A stretch of 64,000 nt of DNA from Escherichia coli (GTDB lineage: Bacteria > Pseudomonadota > Gammaproteobacteria > Enterobacterales > Enterobacteriaceae): NCBI RefSeq assembly GCF_030013205.1, contig NZ_CP122648.1; one strand, given 5' to 3'. The notes below the pieces were generated by a model. That model did not search any database. It was given only the letters and a program-made list of their open reading frames with translations, and had not been told where the DNA came from. The position numbers and the translations under genes were made by a program. Within the stretch, counting starts at the first letter, position 1. Each line of letters begins with the position of its first letter. Shown one piece after another: positions 7,289 to 31,430 of the stretch.

Positions 7289-8143
7289 TTAACCTGCAAT
7301 AGCCATTCCTACCGTCATGTGCAGGCCATAAAAGAGCACACGCCCGATCATCTCACCGCCAAGTATGAGGATTAGCCCCAGAATAAGTCCGGCAACGTGA
7401 GGTTCACGGCGACGAATGAGCGGACAAAGCCAGCATCCTAGACCTGTGCATAACAATACCACACGCCAGACCTGTAAGGAGGCGTAATCTGGTACCAGTG
7501 CGCTGGCTTGTTGTACGGATGAGTGAATAGACGCCAGAGACAAACCTTGCAGCACAATCACCCCGGCACAAGCGATCAGCGCCAGAACGCTAATGATGGC
7601 AAATGTTGTGGTATTAAATGTAACGCGGGCTGCCCGCAGAATTGTGGCAGCAAGTATTGGACCGCTCAACAATACTGTCAGGAAGAAAGCCAGCGTAGTG
7701 TAACCGTTATACCAGGTTGGCACTGTGTCGATTTGATACACGCAGGTCATCATCCAGACGAAAATGACGCCGAGCGCCATGCTGACAAGTAACCAGAGTT
7801 TCCCCAACGCTTGCGGCATTTTACCGATGACCGCCACCAGCCACCATAATCCGCCAACGGCAAAAAATATGGAACCGGCAGCAATCTCGTTACTCAGACC
7901 AGAAGCTCCGATTCGATTCAGCGAGTTAAACGCCCGCAGTGGGGATCCCAGGTGCATGACAGAGGCAATAAACCCGATGCCCATCAACAGCCAGAGGAAA
8001 AACATGCCACGAACAATGTGCTGACGGTCTGCGTCATTTTTGGCGGCGAACCAGCCAATTCCGCTAACAATCAGCGCGCCTACTACGCATTGACCCAATA
8101 CGGTAAAGATAACCAGTGGCCATTCATGCCATCCATTTCCCAT
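7289..8143 (-). CDS. ynfH: DMSO-reductase-type membrane anchor subunit YnfH (DmsC paralogue)
   Basis: ORF 7289..8383 but real start is the ATG at 8141-8143 (MGNGWHEWPLVIF...), 284 aa, 8 TM-like segments; 1 nt after ynfG stop region. Confidence 0.85.
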   Translation of the reverse strand: MGNGWHEWPLVIFTVLGQCVVGALIVSGIGWFAAKNDADRQHIVRGMFFLWLLMGIGFIASVMHLGSPLRAFNSLNRIGASGLSNEIAAGSIFFAVGGLWWLVAVIGKMPQALGKLWLLVSMALGVIFVWMMTCVYQIDTVPTWYNGYTTLAFFLTVLLSGPILAATILRAARVTFNTTTFAIISVLALIACAGVIVLQGLSLASIHSSVQQASALVPDYASLQVWRVVLLCTGLGCWLCPLIRRREPHVAGLILGLILILGGEMIGRVLFYGLHMTVGMAIAG

Positions 8144-8144
8144 T

Positions 8145-8762
8145 TTACACTTCCTCCGGATTAGCCAGATAACCAGTGGTATCGCCGGTTGGGCGGCTGT
8201 TGGCGTTAGGTTTGATAACGATATTGGGTTTTGTGAAATGCGCGCGCGGCAGTGGCGCGACGGCAGCCAGAGTGCCGTGCTTCTGGCGCAGCTCTTCAAT
8301 TGGACCGAACTCAAGTGCACGCAGCGGGCAGGATTCGACACATATGGGTTGTTTCCCCTCGGCGACGCGCGAATAACAACCATCGCACTTCGTCATGTGC
8401 CCTTTTTCAGCATTGTACTGTGGCGCGCCGTACGGACAAGCCATGTGGCAGTAGCGGCAGCCGATACAAACATCTTCATCAACCACCACAAAGCCATCTT
8501 CACGCTTATGCATTGCGCCGCTGGGGCAGACTTTTGTACATGCGGGGTCATCGCAATGGTTACAGGAGATGGAGAGATAATAAGCGAACACGTTCTGGTG
8601 CCAGACGCCATTATCTTCCTGCCAGTCGCCGCCAGCATATTCATAAATACGGCGGAAACTGACTTCCGGGCCAAGATCTTTAAAATCTTTGCACGCCAGT
8701 TCGCAGGTTTTACAGCCAGTACAGCGGCTGGAATCGATAAAAAATCCATATTGTGTGGTCAT
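8145..8762 (-). CDS. ynfG: 4Fe-4S ferredoxin-type electron-transfer subunit YnfG (DmsB paralogue)
   Basis: 205-aa ORF with four CxxCxxCxxxCP-type cysteine clusters. Confidence 0.9.
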   Translation of the reverse strand: MTTQYGFFIDSSRCTGCKTCELACKDFKDLGPEVSFRRIYEYAGGDWQEDNGVWHQNVFAYYLSISCNHCDDPACTKVCPSGAMHKREDGFVVVDEDVCIGCRYCHMACPYGAPQYNAEKGHMTKCDGCYSRVAEGKQPICVESCPLRALEFGPIEELRQKHGTLAAVAPLPRAHFTKPNIVIKPNANSRPTGDTTGYLANPEEV

Positions 8763-8772
8763 GGGCTACTCC

Positions 8773-11199
8773 TTAAACCTTTTCGATCTGGACAAGATTG
8801 CTGTGCGACGGGTTTCCCTTTGCCAGCGGTGAAGGGCGGTGAGAGGTCAGAATATTGATACTGCCGCCGTGATCGACCCGGTCACCAAACATATCCGCTT
8901 TAAGCCACGCACCTTGCCCGATGGCGGTAACGCCAGGCAGAATACGCGGAGTCACTTTTGCGGCAATCAGCATTTCTCCATTATTGTTAAATACCCGCAC
9001 GGTATCGCCATGACGGATACCGCGTGCCTGAGCATCAATAGGGTTGATCCACACCTCTTGTGGGCAGGCCTGCTGTAACACATCAATATTGCCGTAGCTG
9101 GAGTGGGTACGCGCTTTGTAGTGGAAGCCCGTTAGCTGCAGTGGATAGGTTTTCCGCAGGGGATCGTCCCAGCCATCAAAACCTGGGGTATACGCAGGAA
9201 GGGGATGAATAATTTCATCTTTTTTCAATTCCCAGGTATCCGCAATCGTCGCCAGTCGTTCAGAATAAATTTCGATTTTCCCCGAAGGTGTTTTCAACGG
9301 GTTTGCCTGTGGATCTTCACGGAATGCGCGGAAAGCGACGTAGTGTTCTTCCGGGCATTTTTTCTTAAAGATCCCGGTCGTTTTCATCTCCTCGTAGTCG
9401 GGCATCTCAGGGTTACGTTCCTTCGTTTTCGCATGGAGATATTTGATCCATTCGTGCTGACTGCGGCCTTCAGTAAAGGTTTGATAAACGTCTGGTCCTA
9501 AGCGTTTGGCGACTTCGCTCAGCATCCAGTAGATGGGTTTGCGTTCAAATTTTGCTGAGGTTGCGGGTTGGGCGAGGATCACATAGCCCATATTCCCGGC
9601 AGATTCATGAGAGATAAGGTCTTCTTGCTCTGTTGGCATCAGGTCGGGCAACAGGATATCGCAATACTTAGCCGAGGCAGTCATGAAGTGGTCAATGCCA
9701 ACAATCATCTCGCACTTGCTGTCATCCTGAAGCACCTCATGGGTGTGATTGATGTCGCCATGTTGATTGATCAATGTGTTACTGGCGTAGCACCATAAAA
9801 ACTTGATGGGGACATCCAGTTTTTCTTTTCCACGAACACCATCACGGGTCGCGGTCATTTCCGTACCGTGGTCGATGGCATCTGTCCATGTAAAGACGGA
9901 AATCTGCGTTTTAACAGGATTCTCGAGCATCGGGAACCATTCTACCCCCAGATCCCAGCTACCTTCGCGTACACCTGAGTTGCCGCCGTTTATGCCGACG
10001 TTACCGGTGAGAACGGAAAGCATGGCAATAGCGCGGGACGTTTGTTCGCCGTTGGAGTGTCGTTGTGGCCCCCAACCCTGACAAATATAAGCAGGTTTTG
10101 CTGAACCGATCTCTCGTGCCAACTGGATAATTTTTTCTGCCGGGATGCTGGTGATTTTTGCTGCCCATTCCGGCGTTTTAGCTATGCCGTCAGGCCCTTC
10201 GCCCAGAATATAGGCTTTATAATGCGCGTTACGTGGTGCGTTGGCGGGCAGCGTTTTTTCATCGTAACCAACACAATATTTGTCGAGAAATGGCTGATCG
10301 ACCATGTTTTCAGTAATCAGTACCCAGGCAATCGCACAGGCCAGTGCGCCATCGGTGCCTGGGCGAATTGGCAGCCATTCATCTTCACGCCCGGCAGCAG
10401 TGTCGTTATAACGTGGATCGATGACGATCATGCGTGCGTTTGAACGTTCTCGGGCTTGCTCGACGTAGTAAGTGACACCACCGCCGCTCATCCGGGTTTC
10501 TGCCGGGTTATTTCCGAACATAACGACCAGTTTCGTATTGGCTATATCATCCGGGCTGTTGCCATCATTGGCACCGAACATATAACTCATTGCGGCACTG
10601 ATTTGAGCGGTACTGTAGCTGCCATAGCGACTGAGAAAACCACCGCAAGAGTTCATCAGACGGTACGGGACGTTCGAGTTGGTGATGTTTCCGCCATCTA
10701 CGCCTGTTCCGTACAGGACATGTACAGCCTCATTGCCGTATTCTTTCAGGATCCGCCGAAGATTATCACTGATGGTATCCAGGGCTTCATCCCAACTTAT
10801 CCGTTCAAATTTACCTTCACCGCGCTTGCCGACGCGCTTCATGGGATATTTCAACCTATCAGGATGATTCATCCGTCGGCGGATAGAGCGCCCGCGTAAA
10901 CACGCTCGAACCTGATGATTACCGTAGACGTCGTCACCTGTCGTATCAGACTCCACCCAGTACACGGTGTCATCTTTCACATGCAAACGTAACAGACAGC
11001 GGCTCCCGCAGTTAACGGTGCAGGAACTCCAGACCGCTTTCTCTTCTACCGGTGCCTCTGCCGCTCGGACCATTTGGGAAAATGGCAGAGTGAAAGCACT
11101 GCTTGCCAGCGCGAGACTGCCAAGTGCGGAGGTTTTCATCAGACTTCTACGGCTGATTTCAGCCTTCATGAGCGCCTCTGTGGTATGGATTTTCATCAT
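8773..11199 (-). CDS. ynfF: molybdopterin oxidoreductase catalytic subunit YnfF (DmsA paralogue, Tat signal)
   Basis: ~807-aa ORF with twin-arginine signal (SRRSLMKTSALG) and N-terminal Cys cluster; tandem paralogue of ynfE. Confidence 0.9.
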   Translation of the reverse strand: MMKIHTTEALMKAEISRRSLMKTSALGSLALASSAFTLPFSQMVRAAEAPVEEKAVWSSCTVNCGSRCLLRLHVKDDTVYWVESDTTGDDVYGNHQVRACLRGRSIRRRMNHPDRLKYPMKRVGKRGEGKFERISWDEALDTISDNLRRILKEYGNEAVHVLYGTGVDGGNITNSNVPYRLMNSCGGFLSRYGSYSTAQISAAMSYMFGANDGNSPDDIANTKLVVMFGNNPAETRMSGGGVTYYVEQARERSNARMIVIDPRYNDTAAGREDEWLPIRPGTDGALACAIAWVLITENMVDQPFLDKYCVGYDEKTLPANAPRNAHYKAYILGEGPDGIAKTPEWAAKITSIPAEKIIQLAREIGSAKPAYICQGWGPQRHSNGEQTSRAIAMLSVLTGNVGINGGNSGVREGSWDLGVEWFPMLENPVKTQISVFTWTDAIDHGTEMTATRDGVRGKEKLDVPIKFLWCYASNTLINQHGDINHTHEVLQDDSKCEMIVGIDHFMTASAKYCDILLPDLMPTEQEDLISHESAGNMGYVILAQPATSAKFERKPIYWMLSEVAKRLGPDVYQTFTEGRSQHEWIKYLHAKTKERNPEMPDYEEMKTTGIFKKKCPEEHYVAFRAFREDPQANPLKTPSGKIEIYSERLATIADTWELKKDEIIHPLPAYTPGFDGWDDPLRKTYPLQLTGFHYKARTHSSYGNIDVLQQACPQEVWINPIDAQARGIRHGDTVRVFNNNGEMLIAAKVTPRILPGVTAIGQGAWLKADMFGDRVDHGGSINILTSHRPSPLAKGNPSHSNLVQIEKV

Positions 11200-23438: not shown

Positions 23439-23623
23439 TGTGCACATCCTTTTGGCATCAGACGTAAACGAGCCAGCATTGAAACAATGCATATTTTATT
23501 TAATAGCTCCCGTTCTTGTTTTCTCTTGTTAATGGCATCTTCAGTAAATACTGGGTTACTGATAGTGACACCAATTTCAAAACAACCTTCAGACGTATTA
23601 ACGTTTGGTAATAACGTTTTCAT
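23435..23623 (-). CDS. dicB: cell-division inhibitor DicB
   Basis: 62-aa internal ORF MKTLLPNVNTSEGCFEIGVTISNPVFTEDAINKRKQERELLNKICIVSMLARLRLMPKGCAQ inside ORF 23435..23728. Confidence 0.85.
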   Translation of the reverse strand: MKTLLPNVNTSEGCFEIGVTISNPVFTEDAINKRKQERELLNKICIVSMLARLRLMPKGCAQ

Positions 23624-23791
23624 TATCGCGTCCTCAACAATGAATTTTGTGATGCAGTGCCTGGTGCCTCCAGGTGACGTTAACCAGTTAACAATTAACG
23701 CCGGATACAGAGAATCCACCCATAACACTGTTTTTGGTTTTAACTGTTCCGCGTGCGCTCAGCCGCATTCACCACATCACAAAATTCACTT

Positions 23792-23849
23792 TAAAAAGGG
23801 CAGCAGAGCAGTCACGGAGTAAAACTGATACCGCCAAACGTCACCAGAA
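23792..23849 (-). ncRNA. dicF: DicF small RNA (ftsZ-targeting)
   Basis: Reverse complement reads TTTCTGGTGACGTTTGGCGGTATCAGTTTTACTCCGTGACTGCTCTGCTGCCCTTTTT, between ydfC and dicB as in K-12. Confidence 0.75.
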
Positions 23850-24890: not shown

Positions 24891-25298
24891 TTATCTTTTA
24901 TTTGTCCGCTGACGGGCTTTTAGTAATTCTTCAAAGAGTTTATTGAAGTTTTTTACTCGAGCTCGCATTTCGGCGAGCTGGGTATCCTGTTCTGATTCTG
25001 GCAGTGCATTAAACAGCTCAAGGAGCTCTAGTTCTTTGGGGGATAAGGCAACTGGCTTCTCAACAGGTGGTGTTGGTTGCTTGTCTTCATCGCCAAATAG
25101 AATCCATGTTGGTGAGCATTGCAATACTTTGCTGAGGGCAAAAAGGTTCTTCCCTGTAGGTTCACTATCACCCCGTTCCCATTGTGATACAGACACATGG
25201 GAGATTTTCAGGGCTTTAGCAAGAGAGCTTTGGGTGTGTTTGAGGTTTTTCCGACGATACCTGATGCGTTCGCCGATAGTTAAATTTTTTGTTTCCAT
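24891..25298 (-). CDS. dicA: prophage repressor DicA (HTH_XRE, P22 C2-like)
   Basis: 135-aa ORF; HTH LKHTQSSLAKALKISHVSVSQWERG; divergent from dicC. Confidence 0.9.
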   Translation of the reverse strand: METKNLTIGERIRYRRKNLKHTQSSLAKALKISHVSVSQWERGDSEPTGKNLFALSKVLQCSPTWILFGDEDKQPTPPVEKPVALSPKELELLELFNALPESEQDTQLAEMRARVKNFNKLFEELLKARQRTNKR

Positions 25299-25381: not shown

Positions 25382-25612
25382 ATGCTTAAAACTGACGCTC
25401 TTTTGTATTTCGGTTCAAAAACAAAACTTGCACAAGCAGCAGGTATTCGTTTGGCTTCGCTTTATAGCTGGAAAGGGGATTTAGTTCCCGAAGGTCGCGC
25501 GATGCGTCTACAGGAGGCATCTGGCGGGGAGCTTCAGTATGATCCCAAAGTTTATGATGAATATCGTAAGACGAAGCGGGCGGGGCGGTTGAACAATGAA
25601 AATCACTCCTGA
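25382..25612 (+). CDS. dicC: Cro-like regulator DicC
   Basis: 76-aa ORF MLKTDALLYFGSKTKLAQAAGIRLASLYSWKG... Confidence 0.9.
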   Translation: MLKTDALLYFGSKTKLAQAAGIRLASLYSWKGDLVPEGRAMRLQEASGGELQYDPKVYDEYRKTKRAGRLNNENHS

Positions 25613-26362: not shown

Positions 26363-26694
26363 AACCCACTGGATTATTTTTATGAAAGAGGCATCCAGTG
26401 AGTAGATTCGTAAGGCTACAGATACGTATATCTGAATAATTAAATTCAGTTCTGTAAATAAAATTTAATCCTTAACCGGATGGATTTCTGCACCCTCAGA
26501 ACATCAGGAGGCCGCCCGAAAGGGCGGTAGTGAAATGCGAATGTTCAAAATTATTATTGAAACGGGAATAGCTGGTGGAGATTTTGAGGATGTATTCGAA
26601 GTGGACGATGACGCAACACCTGAGGAAATTCATGACGGAGCATAAGAAATTTTCTTTAACTACTGCAATTACTCATACCACGAAATAAAAGACG

Positions 26695-26886
26695 ATGAGG
26701 AAGAACAAAGTGGCTGATTTTTGTTCAGCTAAATATAACATCAGTTTTGAAGAGCGGGATGAACTATTAATGGACTATGGTGAGTTACGCGGTGGAAGTG
26801 CTGCTGATGTCGAATCCTAGCGTGATGACTATGAAGCGGGAAAAACTCCGGTCGAAGCATATTGTGATGAGTGGGGCGATGAATGA
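26695..26886 (+). pseudogene. short acidic ORF with single in-frame TAG
   Basis: MRKNKVADFCSAKYNISFEERDELLMDYGELRGGSAADVES-TAG(26818)-RDDYEAGKTPVEAYCDEWGDE-TGA; downstream segment has no start codon. Confidence 0.35.
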
Positions 26887-27170
26887 GCGAGATTAATTAT
26901 CAGGAAGGGCATGAAACGGCGGGGCAAGCAAAACCAGTGGCATGGCGATATCGCTACGTGAAAAAAGGCGTTACGGACTTTCAGGGGAAGTAGTGGTCTG
27001 GTGACTGGAAATATGTACCGAAAAAAGAGGATTGTAACGACAGGCCGAACTATCAAATTCAGGCCTTATTCACTGCCTCACCAGTCCCAGTTACATCAGA
27101 AGAACTGGTTAAAGCTGTGCACTTTTATGAACAACTAAAACGCGAAAATCCACCAACATCCGGCAACTAG
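26883..27170 (+). pseudogene. short ORF with single in-frame TAG
   Basis: MSEINYQEGHETAGQAKPVAWRYRYVKKGVTDFQGK-TAG(26991)-WSGDWKYVPKKEDCNDRPNYQIQALFTASPVPVTSEELVKAVHFYEQLKRENPPTSGN-TAG; downstream segment lacks a start. Confidence 0.35.
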
Positions 27171-27424
27171 ATTAATGGATTAACTATGTCGGTTAAACGA
27201 CCAGCCAACTGAAAAAGCGGAAACCTGATTACAGGTTGCCAGATAAGGCAATGAGCTACCTGGCGCGGAACGGACTGATAAGTATGGGGAATGTTTTACG
27301 ATGAACCTTTAGACTAAAGAGTTTGTAACGCTATGTAAGTGATTTTTTCTGGTTTAGATATTTATATGTCCGGCCAAATTGAGGTGTGTTTAAATGTAAT
27401 TGCACATTGATTGTAGGAGGAATA

Positions 27425-27604
27425 ATGAAAAACGCATTGCAGTTTTTGTTTGTTGCGTTCTGGTTGTTCGCATCATGTATGCCCATCATCTTCACAGCAA
27501 GGTATATGGAAAAAGTTGATGTTTTGATATTAATATTTGGATATATAAATGCCCTTTTTTTAGGGGTGTTCATGGCGGTCATGTGCATTGAATACTGGCG
27601 GTAA
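27425..27604 (+). CDS. small two-TM membrane protein (59 aa), function unknown
   Basis: ATG at 27425 preceded by AGGAGG 7 nt upstream; MKNALQFLFVAFWLFASCMPIIFTARYMEKVDVLILIFGYINALFLGVFMAVMCIEYWR; very AT-rich codons. Confidence 0.5.
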   Translation: MKNALQFLFVAFWLFASCMPIIFTARYMEKVDVLILIFGYINALFLGVFMAVMCIEYWR

Positions 27605-27938
27605 ATACAGCGAACTCCATTGGTTTAGTTGGATATTTACTGTGCTGGACAAAAACGGTTTGCGGGGAAATCTTAGTTAAGTAGAATGACTGCGGGTGCT
27701 TGAGGCTATCTGCCTCGGGCATGGACACCAACGGCAGATAGAGAAAAGCCCCAGTTAACATTACGCGTCCTGCAAGACGCTTAACATTAATCTGAGGCCA
27801 ATTTCATGCTAGACACATGTAGGTTAGCCTCTTACGTGCCGAAAGGCACGGAGAAGCAGGCTATTGTTAACACCAAGTTGTAATGTCCCCTTTGAACCAT
27901 TCTAAAATGTCCCCAGACAATTCTCTGGGGGATTTTTC

Positions 27939-29252
27939 ATGATCAAAGAGACTGTTACGATGAGTCATAAGGAACTCCACCGACTTCAGATTATTCAGGA
28001 ACAAGCTGCGGCACGCATTGGCATTTCTATTCGGCAGGTTAAACGTCTGGTGCAACGGTATAGAAATGAAGGGCCTTCTGGTCTGGTTTCCCACCGACGT
28101 GGAAAGCGTCCTAATAATTCCTTTTCTACTGAATTCAGAGCAACAGTAATTTCACTCCTCAAAGGCCGTTACGCTGATTTTGGACCTACGTTTGCGTGCG
28201 AAAAATTGCGCGAGATACACGGTTTATCTTTATCCGTTGAAACTCTCAGAAAGTGGATGATAGAAGAGGGGTTATGGCGTGAACGCCGTCGTAAAATTGC
28301 CCGTATATATCAACGCCGCATGCGACGACCATCTTACGGTGAACTGATCCAGATTGATGGCTCACCTCATGACTGGTTTGAAAATCGAGGCCCCAGATGT
28401 ACACTGATCGTTTTCATTGATGATGCCACCAGTGCGTTGATGGCGTTGCGTTTTGTGCCTGCTGAAACAACCCGGGCTTACATGGAAACCCTCCGGGGTT
28501 ACCTTAATGATCATGGCGTACCGCTCGCTCTCTACTCTGATAGACACAGTATATTCAGGGTAAATAACCCAGAGCGGGAAGGTGAGCTGACCCAGTTCAC
28601 TCGTGCGATAAAGACACTGGGCATCGAGCCAATCCATGCCAACAGCCCGCAGGCAAAAGGGCGGGTAGAGCGCGCCAATCAGACACTACAGGACAGGCTG
28701 GTCAAAGAAATGCGGCTTCAGAATATCAGTGATATTGAAACAGCAAATGCATGGTTGCCGACCTTTATTGAAGCCTATAACAACCGGTTCGCTACGTCGC
28801 CTCGTACTACTGATAATGCTCATCTTGATGTGCACCATTCTGAAGAGGAACTGGGTTATATCTTCAGCCTACAGGCGAAGCGCGTTCTGTCTAAAAATCT
28901 CACTTTCCAGTACAAAAGCAGTGCGTTTCAGGTACGCAGTGAGGGCCGGGGATATCGACTTAGGCATTCGGTTGTTACTGTATGCGAGAACTTTGACGGT
29001 GAAATTAACGTTCTGTATGACGGGAAAGCGCTGGGCTGGGAAAAGTATGTTGATGGCCCGGAGCCTATACCACTGGATGATGAAAAGAGTGTCCATGAAC
29101 GAGTGGATAATGCCCGTATTGATTTACGCTCAAAATACTATGTTAAACCTAAAGCTGACCATCCCTGGCTTACGCGCCGAACGCAAAGTCATCAGCAAGT
29201 TAAGCCCCCGAAGTTACCTAAAAAGAAGCCTGATCCCGATAAAAAAGATTGA
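27939..29252 (+). CDS. DDE transposase with N-terminal HTH and integrase-core (rve) domain, IS481/ISNCY-like
   Basis: 437-aa ORF; HTH IGISIRQVKRLVQRY; catalytic-looking residues in LIQIDGSPHD, LALYSDRHSIF and KGRVERANQTLQD; basic Lys/Pro-rich C-terminus. Confidence 0.8.
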   Translation: MIKETVTMSHKELHRLQIIQEQAAARIGISIRQVKRLVQRYRNEGPSGLVSHRRGKRPNNSFSTEFRATVISLLKGRYADFGPTFACEKLREIHGLSLSVETLRKWMIEEGLWRERRRKIARIYQRRMRRPSYGELIQIDGSPHDWFENRGPRCTLIVFIDDATSALMALRFVPAETTRAYMETLRGYLNDHGVPLALYSDRHSIFRVNNPEREGELTQFTRAIKTLGIEPIHANSPQAKGRVERANQTLQDRLVKEMRLQNISDIETANAWLPTFIEAYNNRFATSPRTTDNAHLDVHHSEEELGYIFSLQAKRVLSKNLTFQYKSSAFQVRSEGRGYRLRHSVVTVCENFDGEINVLYDGKALGWEKYVDGPEPIPLDDEKSVHERVDNARIDLRSKYYVKPKADHPWLTRRTQSHQQVKPPKLPKKKPDPDKKD

Positions 29253-31105: not shown

Positions 31106-31176
31106 ACCAAAGCATGACATCTCTGTTTCGCACCGAAGGTGACACTTCTGCTTTGCGTTGACAGGAGAAGCAGGCT

Positions 31177-31332
31177 ATGAAGCAGCAAAAGGCGATGTTA
31201 ATCGCCCTGATCGTCATCTGTTTAACCGTCATAGTGACGGCACTGGTAACGAGGAAAGACCTCTGCGAGGTACGAATCCGAACCGGCCAGACGGAGGTCG
31301 CTGTCTTCACAGCTTACGAACCTGAGGAGTAA
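31177..31332 (+). CDS. hokD: Hok-family membrane toxin HokD (RelF)
   Basis: Manual translation: MKQQKAMLIALIVICLTVIVTALVTRKDLCEVRIRTGQTEVAVFTAYEPEE (51 aa); below the ORF-track cutoff. Confidence 0.85.
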   Translation: MKQQKAMLIALIVICLTVIVTALVTRKDLCEVRIRTGQTEVAVFTAYEPEE

Positions 31333-31401
31333 GAGACCCGGCGGGGGAGAAATCCCTCGCCACCTCTGATGTGGCAGGCATCCTCAACGCACCCGCACTT
31401 A

Positions 31402-31430
31402 ACCCGCTTCGGCGGGTTTTTGTTTTTATT
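31402..31430 (+). terminator. rho-independent terminator after relBE-hokD
   Basis: cccgc-ttcg-gcggg hairpin followed by tttttgtttttatttt. Confidence 0.6.

Follow-up and report, generated by a model that had tools for sequence, protein, structure and literature searches.

A candidate gene for a small membrane protein next to a hok locus in a Qin-like prophage of Escherichia coli

Is a short hydrophobic reading frame with a consensus ribosome-binding site, lying beside a transposase and pseudogenes in a prophage, a gene, and of what kind? The question is raised by positions 27425 to 27604 of a 64,000-nucleotide (nt) stretch of Escherichia coli DNA (contig NZ_CP122648.1 of assembly GCF_030013205.1), designated here as the window. 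A preliminary description had presented this frame as an orphan coding for a two-helix membrane protein of 59 amino acids (aa), with no recognisable partner gene. The family to which it belongs matches nothing described and is an undescribed family of small phage membrane proteins. That it is a family of real genes is highly probable, and a membrane hairpin, as modelled, is a good expectation for the product. The complete statement, i.e., a real but uncharacterised gene that encodes an inner-membrane helical hairpin and forms an accessory module with the toxin gene hok, is held with moderate confidence. Any specific role of the protein is tentative at best.

The open reading frame, its product and its two branches

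The open reading frame (ORF) is the window's member of branch A in a family of two branches, A and B. Its features are as follows.

27425..27604, plus strand: ORF of 59 codons and a stop (ATG at 27425, TAA at 27602-27604), branch A of the two-branch family
27415..27420, plus strand: Shine-Dalgarno (SD) sequence AGGAGG, four bases (AATA) ahead of the ATG at 27425
27386..27424, plus strand: 13-codon extension initiated at GTG, which gives the 72-aa form in some GenBank records and is not kept in branch B
27555..27561, plus strand: homopolymer of seven T within codons 44-46, the site of the frameshifted database variants P0019, P0022, P0024, and P0025
27605..27650, plus strand: 3′ flank alignable between branches A and B in MAFFT, with identity roughly equal to that of the ORF

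In the ORF list of the window, the frame is open upstream to the GTG at 27386, from which a 72-aa form would result, and the preliminary description gave its extent as 27386-27604. The 59-aa frame is present, but it runs from the ATG at 27425, and the GTG is a non-conserved start. In branch B, an in-frame TAA lies 18 nt 5′ of the ATG, so the conserved start is that at 27425 and the product has 59 aa, not 72; the GTG extension is probably not translated. The patch had also been called very AT-rich; it is AT-rich, but only moderately, with G+C content of 36-38% against 46.7% for the whole window.

The 59-aa product has the sequence MKNALQFLFVAFWLFASCMPIIFTARYMEKVDVLILIFGYINALFLGVFMAVMCIEYWR, with a single Met start. 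Its Kyte-Doolittle profile has hydrophobic stretches at about residues 4-25 and 33-55 around a short charged loop, R-Y-M-E-K-V-D. AlphaFold, run on the family alignment, returned a helix-turn-helix hairpin with helices at residues 2-26 and 31-58 and a mean predicted local distance difference test (pLDDT) of 72.5. Two transmembrane (TM) domains are thus predicted from hydropathy and from the modelled hairpin, in agreement with the small, hydrophobic, two-helix membrane protein of a prophage that had been described. Helix 2 carries a glycine-zipper-like motif, G39-x3-A43-x3-G47, and is followed only by EYWR.

The expectation by chance was estimated from 20,000 dinucleotide-preserving shuffles of positions 27300-27659. 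A plus-strand ORF of at least 59 aa starting with ATG arose in 6.4% of them, an ORF with two TM-like segments in 0.46%, and one with two TM-like segments and an SD in three (0.015%). Length alone is not significant, as an ORF of at least 59 aa on either strand was present in 28.5% of shuffles of positions 27200-27699. The grand average of hydropathy (GRAVY) is 1.27 in the frame of the ORF, versus 0.04 and 0.64 in the other two plus-strand frames, and base use across codon positions is uneven (T2 52%, T3 23%, GC3 about 50%; chi-square p=0.015). This frame-specific hydrophobicity and position-dependent base use indicate that the AT-richness stems from the amino-acid composition, and not the reverse. 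Hydrophobicity as a by-product of a T-rich strand was rejected, being frame-specific and rare in the shuffles.

The exhaustive HMMER (phmmer) search of 1.84 billion representative proteins recognized P0037, whose length is likewise 59 aa and whose identity over residues 1-59 is 41% (E=1e-8). A profile search then gave P0042, the main form of branch B; the contigs that carry it number at least 1,000, complete E. coli chromosomes among them. The alignment of the two branches is gapless, with 23 invariant columns when three sequences are compared and 22 with eleven. Invariant residues include M1, L5, L8, W13, S17, C18, P20, I21, I22, T24, and L36 in the first part of the protein and F38, G39, N42, A43, L44, G47, V48, F49, E56, W58, and R59 in the second.

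At the DNA level, the ORFs of branches A and B are 58.9% identical, and identity by codon position (0.58, 0.70, and 0.48) follows the classical order of coding sequence. Fourteen of the 24 residues identical between the branches use different codons. The Nei-Gojobori method gave dN of 0.47, dS of about 2.0, and dN/dS of about 0.24, a ratio that is approximate because dS is saturated, which weakens it as an argument for a gene. Over the 120 nt that precede the ATGs, identity is 27.5%, i.e., the branches are unrelated there. When 74 random substitutions were placed on the ORF of the window in a neutral simulation, 0.25% of runs kept an open frame with start and stop in register, and 0.3% reached at least 24 identical residues of 59 (mean 16.7, standard deviation 2.5). 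A gapless paralogue of the same length and 41% identity, with substitutions of coding type, means that the ORF is conserved as opposed to the DNA. The designation as an orphan holds insofar as no curated family matches the protein; a second branch exists nevertheless, in about 1,045 of 5,426 complete E. coli genomes.

The adjoining hok locus

The downstream neighbour of the ORF is a type I toxin-antitoxin locus of the hok/sok/mok kind, which is interrupted in the window. Its parts, and those of the insert, are the following.

27660..27687, plus strand: candidate hok promoter, with -35 TTGCGG at 27660-27665, a 16-nt spacer, and -10 TAGAAT at 27682-27687, read by eye
27694..27864(5), plus strand: hok mRNA leader with tac stem and the mok start ATG at 27806 (Rfam RF01794, 104.1 bits against a gathering score of 59, model positions 1-157)
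about 27744-27814, minus strand: putative sok antisense gene, placed by analogy with sokW in the sokW/mokW/hokW layout of phage 933W
27865..31162, no strand assigned: transposon-like insert of 3,298 bp with an ISNCY-family transposase ORF, ydfW, flxA, ydfV, relB, and relE
27939-29252: transposase ORF, of the ISNCY family according to the ATCC 8739 annotation
31177..31332, plus strand: coding sequence (CDS) of hokD, read as the displaced 3′ half of the ancestral hok locus

The candidate promoter begins 55 nt past the stop of the ORF and just 5′ of the Rfam model start at 27694; the consensus scan did not call it. The leader starts about 90 bp 3′ of the ORF and ends inside the hok start codon, in GGAGAAGCAGGCTAT followed by TGTTAAC (GGCTAT/TGTTAAC across the junction), and no hok CDS is contiguous with it. 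An intact hok, encoding MKQQKAMLIALIV...EPEE, comes after the same ORF region in phage vB_EcoS-640R1. Homology to the phage locus resumes in the window at 31163, which is hokD (locus L003 4051-4314 against window 31163-31427, 98%). Partnerless is thus not the right word for the ORF, as a hok/sok/mok promoter and leader lie about 90 bp downstream (RF01794) and hok itself is intact in the phage. The transposase and pseudogenes named as its neighbours were found as described, the former at 27939-29252 and the latter upstream.

The insert is flanked by 15-bp direct repeats, GGAGAAGCAGGCTAT, at 27850-27864 and 31163-31177, and has imperfect terminal inverted repeats (21/30). These features suggest a transposon-like unit that duplicated 15 bp of its target. 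Judged from these junctions, the hok leader with sok on one side and hokD on the other are the two halves of one ancestral hok locus, split by the insert that carries relBE. Such a split would explain the origin of the relB-relE-hokD arrangement and of a hokD without sok and mok. By analogy with 933W, the part to the left of the junction contains the mok start as well as sok and its promoter, and these would survive as an orphan; the sok gene and its promoter in the orphaned leader are probably intact. The orphaned leader is left unannotated by the Prokaryotic Genome Annotation Pipeline (PGAP) in ATCC 8739.

A hok remnant was also recognized in branch B, 58 nt past the stop of the ORF (K-K-D-L-H-Q-V-R-I-stop), with a 77-82% match to hokD CDSs elsewhere. 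Homology between the branches starts at the ATG and runs about 45 nt past the stop. Because hok adjoins both branches and the homology starts at the ATG, the ORF and hok are taken to be co-inherited parts of a single module, which begins on its 5′ side at the translation start of the ORF. The alignable 3′ flank and the unrelated 5′ flank likewise place the extension of the shared module downstream and not upstream. The inherited position beside hok/sok gives the ORF a concrete link to a classic membrane toxin. An upstream ORF as a general trait of prophage hok loci was considered and rejected, as hokW of phage 933W has an unrelated gene in this place.

On the left side, a terminator-like hairpin with a T-run on the minus strand (27237-27222) coincides with the loss of homology between haplotype groups at 27227-27273, which is the left mosaic boundary of the module.

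Selection, expression and the rival explanations

The ORF lies between the replication and nin genes and the hok-rem-ydfU-rusA-Q group, and it reads in the same direction as the early-right operon (dicC, replication genes, nin genes, then hok, rem, ydfU, rusA, Q); essQ and rrrQ, the lysis genes of Qin, have another location. As the 5′ gene of a small accessory module with the hok/sok/mok locus as its second part, it would most likely be transcribed with this operon, from dicC to Q, and translated from its own SD. The 59-residue protein would insert into the inner membrane as a helical hairpin, with a topology that is probably N-in/C-in given the basic N-terminus (K2, or R2-K3), the neutral-to-acidic periplasmic loop, and the conserved C-terminal I-E-x-W-R. 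S17-C18-x-P20 in helix 1 and G39-x3-A43-x3-G47 with N42 in helix 2 probably mediate helix packing, which may mean self-association or binding of a host inner-membrane protein. In that case the product could be a phage accessory factor directed at the membrane, and the lead candidates for its action are exclusion of incoming phage DNA and membrane perturbation. This role is the most likely one as a prior, taken from the usual behaviour of small prophage membrane proteins, and is not a result.

Small inner-membrane accessory proteins of prophages, known as morons, include T4 Imm and HK97 gp15, and the exclusion activity of DicB of Qin belongs here as well. The 59-aa protein resembles them in being tiny, membrane-directed, borne by a defective prophage, dispensable for core phage functions, and patchy among strains, and its ORF sits among accessory and toxin genes. 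It differs in having no sequence or profile similarity to T4 Imm, HK97 gp15, or DicB, and no promoter of its own was found for the ORF, while exclusion genes expressed in lysogens usually have one. The small regulatory membrane proteins AcrZ, MgrB, MgtS, and SgrT of E. coli are single-helix, chromosomally encoded, and have known partners and regulators. The family shares with this class a similar size, conserved polar residues in the helices, and a likely mode of binding within the membrane, but its protein has two helices, is encoded by a prophage, and has no known partner. Two further proposals are decidedly unlikely: that the hairpin and hok/sok act as a two-gene membrane module, with the small protein as a Hok modulator, an immunity factor, or a second pore component, or that the protein alone represents a new exclusion or abortive-infection family that between about a third and a half of E. 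coli strains would carry.

Variation within branch A was sampled independently of gene calls, by a 28-nt pattern in the 3′ flank, which recovered 120 IMG/VR loci. The ORF is intact in all 118 full copies, in nine haplotypes, and the two upstream nin-type genes, up1 and up2, are intact in only 78 of 104 and 81 of 103 loci, respectively. The same scan for branch B gave one locus, and a metagenome scan by flank pattern was used instead; the ORF is intact at all 29 loci that it yielded. With both branches pooled, polymorphism density in the ORF is about half of that in the flanks (p=0.02).

Several observations weigh against a functional gene. The changes in branch A are eight nonsynonymous and no synonymous ones (A16V, M28I, V31I, I37M, Y40H, and V48G among them), while neighbours at the same loci have pN/pS of 0.26 and 0.34 (the two upstream nin-type genes), 0.46 (hok), 0.21 (rem), 0.13 (ydfU), and 0.15 (rusA). 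The contrast between the ORF and these controls is significant in Fisher's test (p=0.02 against the two upstream genes, p=0.0007 against all controls), and omega of 0.25 or less is rejected for branch A polymorphism (P=0.005). On within-branch variation alone, the amino-acid sequence is without visible purifying selection today. Branch B has four nonsynonymous and no synonymous changes, with fewer polymorphisms per base than in its flanks. The AGGAGG of the window, rightly noted before, is not fixed in branch A, as 47 of 110 sampled loci have AGGGGG (site 27418, A:63 G:47), and in branch B the SD is a weak AGGGA. About 45 nt of 3′ flank are conserved about as well as the ORF, so conservation of the DNA as such explains part of the similarity between the branches. 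The promoter scan found no plus-strand promoter-like site upstream of the ORF of either branch.

Further points on the same side come from annotation and distribution. PGAP/RefSeq places no gene under the branch A ORF in ATCC 8739 or in 40 genomes sampled across the ranking, and branch B is likewise unannotated by PGAP in the sampled genomes. A literature search with the peptides gave no matching paper. The family is limited to two branches, both from one species. In Qin of K-12 MG1655 (1647174-1647636), the ORF segment is absent and ydfX, a remnant of a YdaT-family gene, abuts ydfW; the deletion there took the replication and nin genes, the 59-aa ORF, the hok leader, and most of the insertion sequence (IS). 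The word-indexed protein search returned only E. coli and Shigella copies at least 92% identical, together with many truncated or frameshifted forms. These results suggested at first that the ORF is not a gene, a view that the exhaustive HMMER search overturned. The proposed function, moreover, is drawn solely from residue patterns and context.

Most of these points would fit a relic, i.e., a gene of a once active phage, whence the coding signature between A and B, that is now unexpressed and unselected and is open because its copies are young and differ hardly at all. At 95-100% identity among DNA copies, intactness carries little information; the variable SD, the missing promoter, and the absence of PGAP calls agree with disuse, as do the surroundings of pseudogenes, IS, and split or decayed hok, and the truncated variants in protein databases. 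The frameshifted variants at the T7 homopolymer have no counterpart among the 118 IMG/VR copies, so they may be sequencing errors or rare slippage mutants. The 12:0 excess of nonsynonymous over synonymous changes across both branches also fits a relic, and it is not significantly different from neutrality (p=0.077). Excesses of this kind are, however, usual among very close bacterial genomes. The within-branch test is shallow because the copies are very young, with no synonymous diversity in the ORF versus 14-15 synonymous changes in each upstream gene. A relic would hardly be expected to stay open in 147 of 147 sampled copies when the small genes beside it are disrupted at roughly one in four of the same loci, to have about half the polymorphism density of its flanks, or, as in branch B, to outlive every neighbour. 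A relic is on balance unlikely, though among the rivals it has to be taken most seriously.

The spot is rich in toxin-antitoxin genes, with hok/sok adjacent and relBE nearby, and the ORF itself could be a type I toxin, a second one beside hok, silenced by an antisense RNA or an RNA of the 5′ untranslated region (UTR). A small hydrophobic product, a strong SD, the glycine-zipper-like motif of helix 2, a conserved 3′ flank that could host an antisense element, and the minus-strand terminator-like hairpin at 27237-27222 would all suit such a toxin. However, no minus-strand promoter-like site was found near the branch A ORF, no Rfam family lies over it, and the hok leader is the only significant Rfam match in 27200-28000, the others being weak and below threshold. 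No antisense RNA specific to the ORF was detected; the sole one nearby belongs to hok, by analogy with sokW. Known type I toxins are mostly single-helix, a long conserved 5′ UTR is not present, the upstream region being unrelated between branches, and all sampled copies are open and free of inactivating mutations, also in branch B, where the partner would have decayed. Similarity to Hok/Gef and the hok/sok/mok locus of 933W (RF01794) extends to an adjacent, ancestrally co-inherited position and to a small hydrophobic membrane peptide borne by a prophage. The 59-aa protein, in contrast, has two predicted helices against the single one of Hok/Gef, no match to Hok/Gef profiles in Pfam or NCBIfam nor any other Pfam match, and no Hok cysteine pattern, and its ORF has no coupled frame of the mok kind. 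A toxin of this type is very improbable. Equally so, or by a shade more, is an ORF that is part of the hok locus, either as an upstream frame modulating hok/sok expression or through a protein modulating Hok at the membrane. It is immediately 5′ of hok in both branches, homology between them starts at its ATG and runs toward hok, and the scan found no terminator between the ORF and the hok promoter. Unrelated upstream genes, though, accompany other prophage hok loci, such as hokW/sokW/mokW of 933W; a 751-bp query that includes the hok leader matches 4,323 genomes versus 1,568 for the ORF; and the ORF is intact where hok is split, as in the window, or destroyed, as in branch B. The decay of hok next to an intact ORF in branch B indicates a protein independent of hok. 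A recent hok survey mentions no such upstream partner (10.1101/2025.08.07.668861).

A holin or pinholin-like protein of class II, with two TM domains and a role in lysis timing, is the least credible of the rivals and extremely improbable. Class II holins, e.g., S21-68 of phage 21, have two TM helices in about 60-70 residues, a size that the predicted helices fit, and G39-x3-A43-x3-G47, a small-x3-small-x3-small pattern in helix 2, recalls the glycine zipper in the second TM domain of the phage 21 pinholin. The 59-aa protein, however, ends with EYWR in place of a charged cytoplasmic tail and has no dual-start motif. Its ORF sits in the early/nin region upstream of Q and not in a lysis cassette, and no PHROG or Pfam holin family and no significant fold matches it. 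The reading preferred here is that of an accessory gene for a membrane hairpin, inherited with hok. If expressed, the family would join the short list of prophage-encoded small membrane proteins, which often govern phage exclusion, membrane integrity, or host transporters. If not expressed, it would be a caution that a textbook ribosome-binding site and a clean ORF with two TM segments can persist as a relic.

Distribution, annotation and prophage neighbourhood

Of 5,426 complete E. coli genomes, 1,568 carry the DNA of branch A, at 95-100% identity, and about 1,045-1,214 have branch B on the chromosome. With 1,568 genomes for the former and about 1,045 for the latter, the family occurs in a large share of complete E. 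coli genomes. Both branches co-occur in one genome (NZ_CP120633.1). The family is confined to lambdoid prophages of E. coli and Shigella and to their remnants. A scan of one genome per GTDB species gave a single copy, 100% identical, on contig JAIJJM010000167.1 of a metagenome-assembled genome named 'Collinsella sp.'; this is most likely E. coli DNA binned by mistake. Because the gene is unannotated in RefSeq and absent from K-12, small-protein surveys have not met it. GenBank has many deposits under the names 'hypothetical protein', 'uncharacterized membrane protein', and 'membrane protein', from E. coli, S. dysenteriae, and S. flexneri.

PHROGs, NCBIfam, PADLOC, Pfam, and the sequences of the PDB gave zero matches to the 59-aa protein, and no defence or exclusion model of PADLOC or PHROGs recognized it. 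Foldseek against viral structures returned generic hairpins only (E>1). An antisense ORF of 85 aa at 27331..27588 on the minus strand, called in two phage records as 'hornerin' or as a hypothetical protein, was rejected as a gene. The protein that it would encode is rich in N and K and has a low GRAVY, and in no minus-strand frame are the polymorphisms synonymous; it was also dismissed because no minus-strand ORF overlaps branch B.

In EcPF14 (NZ_CP054230.1, about 8100-10300 of the extracted locus), branch B lies at a decayed prophage end by sitABCD. The order there is tail-fibre genes, sitABCD, an integrase fragment, a DUF1627 fragment, the ORF, the hok remnant, a frameshifted metal-ABC permease, uspF, and ompN. 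The ORF is the sole element still intact at this prophage end, and the frameshifted metal-ABC permease is the second one there.

The region of the window is a Qin-like lambdoid prophage of E. coli, and its layout matches the annotated chromosome of ATCC 8739. Besides the nin-type small genes, flxA, ydfV, relB, relE, and hokD, the following genes were located.

24891-25298, minus strand: dicA
25382-25612, plus strand: dicC

The nin-type small genes at 26442-27174 are pseudogenised in the window and in ATCC 8739 by an internal stop and a frameshift, and their intact forms are in phage vB_EcoS-640R1. The small RNA DicF was recognized on the minus strand at 23798-23849 (Rfam, 71 bits, above threshold), as expected for the dicBF operon of a Qin-like prophage. 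Adjoining it on the same strand, a match to STnc100 at 23591-23800 has 34 bits, which is below threshold. A weak Rfam match to isrK, of 25 bits against a gathering score of 50, lies on the plus strand at 31341-31422, just 3′ of hokD.

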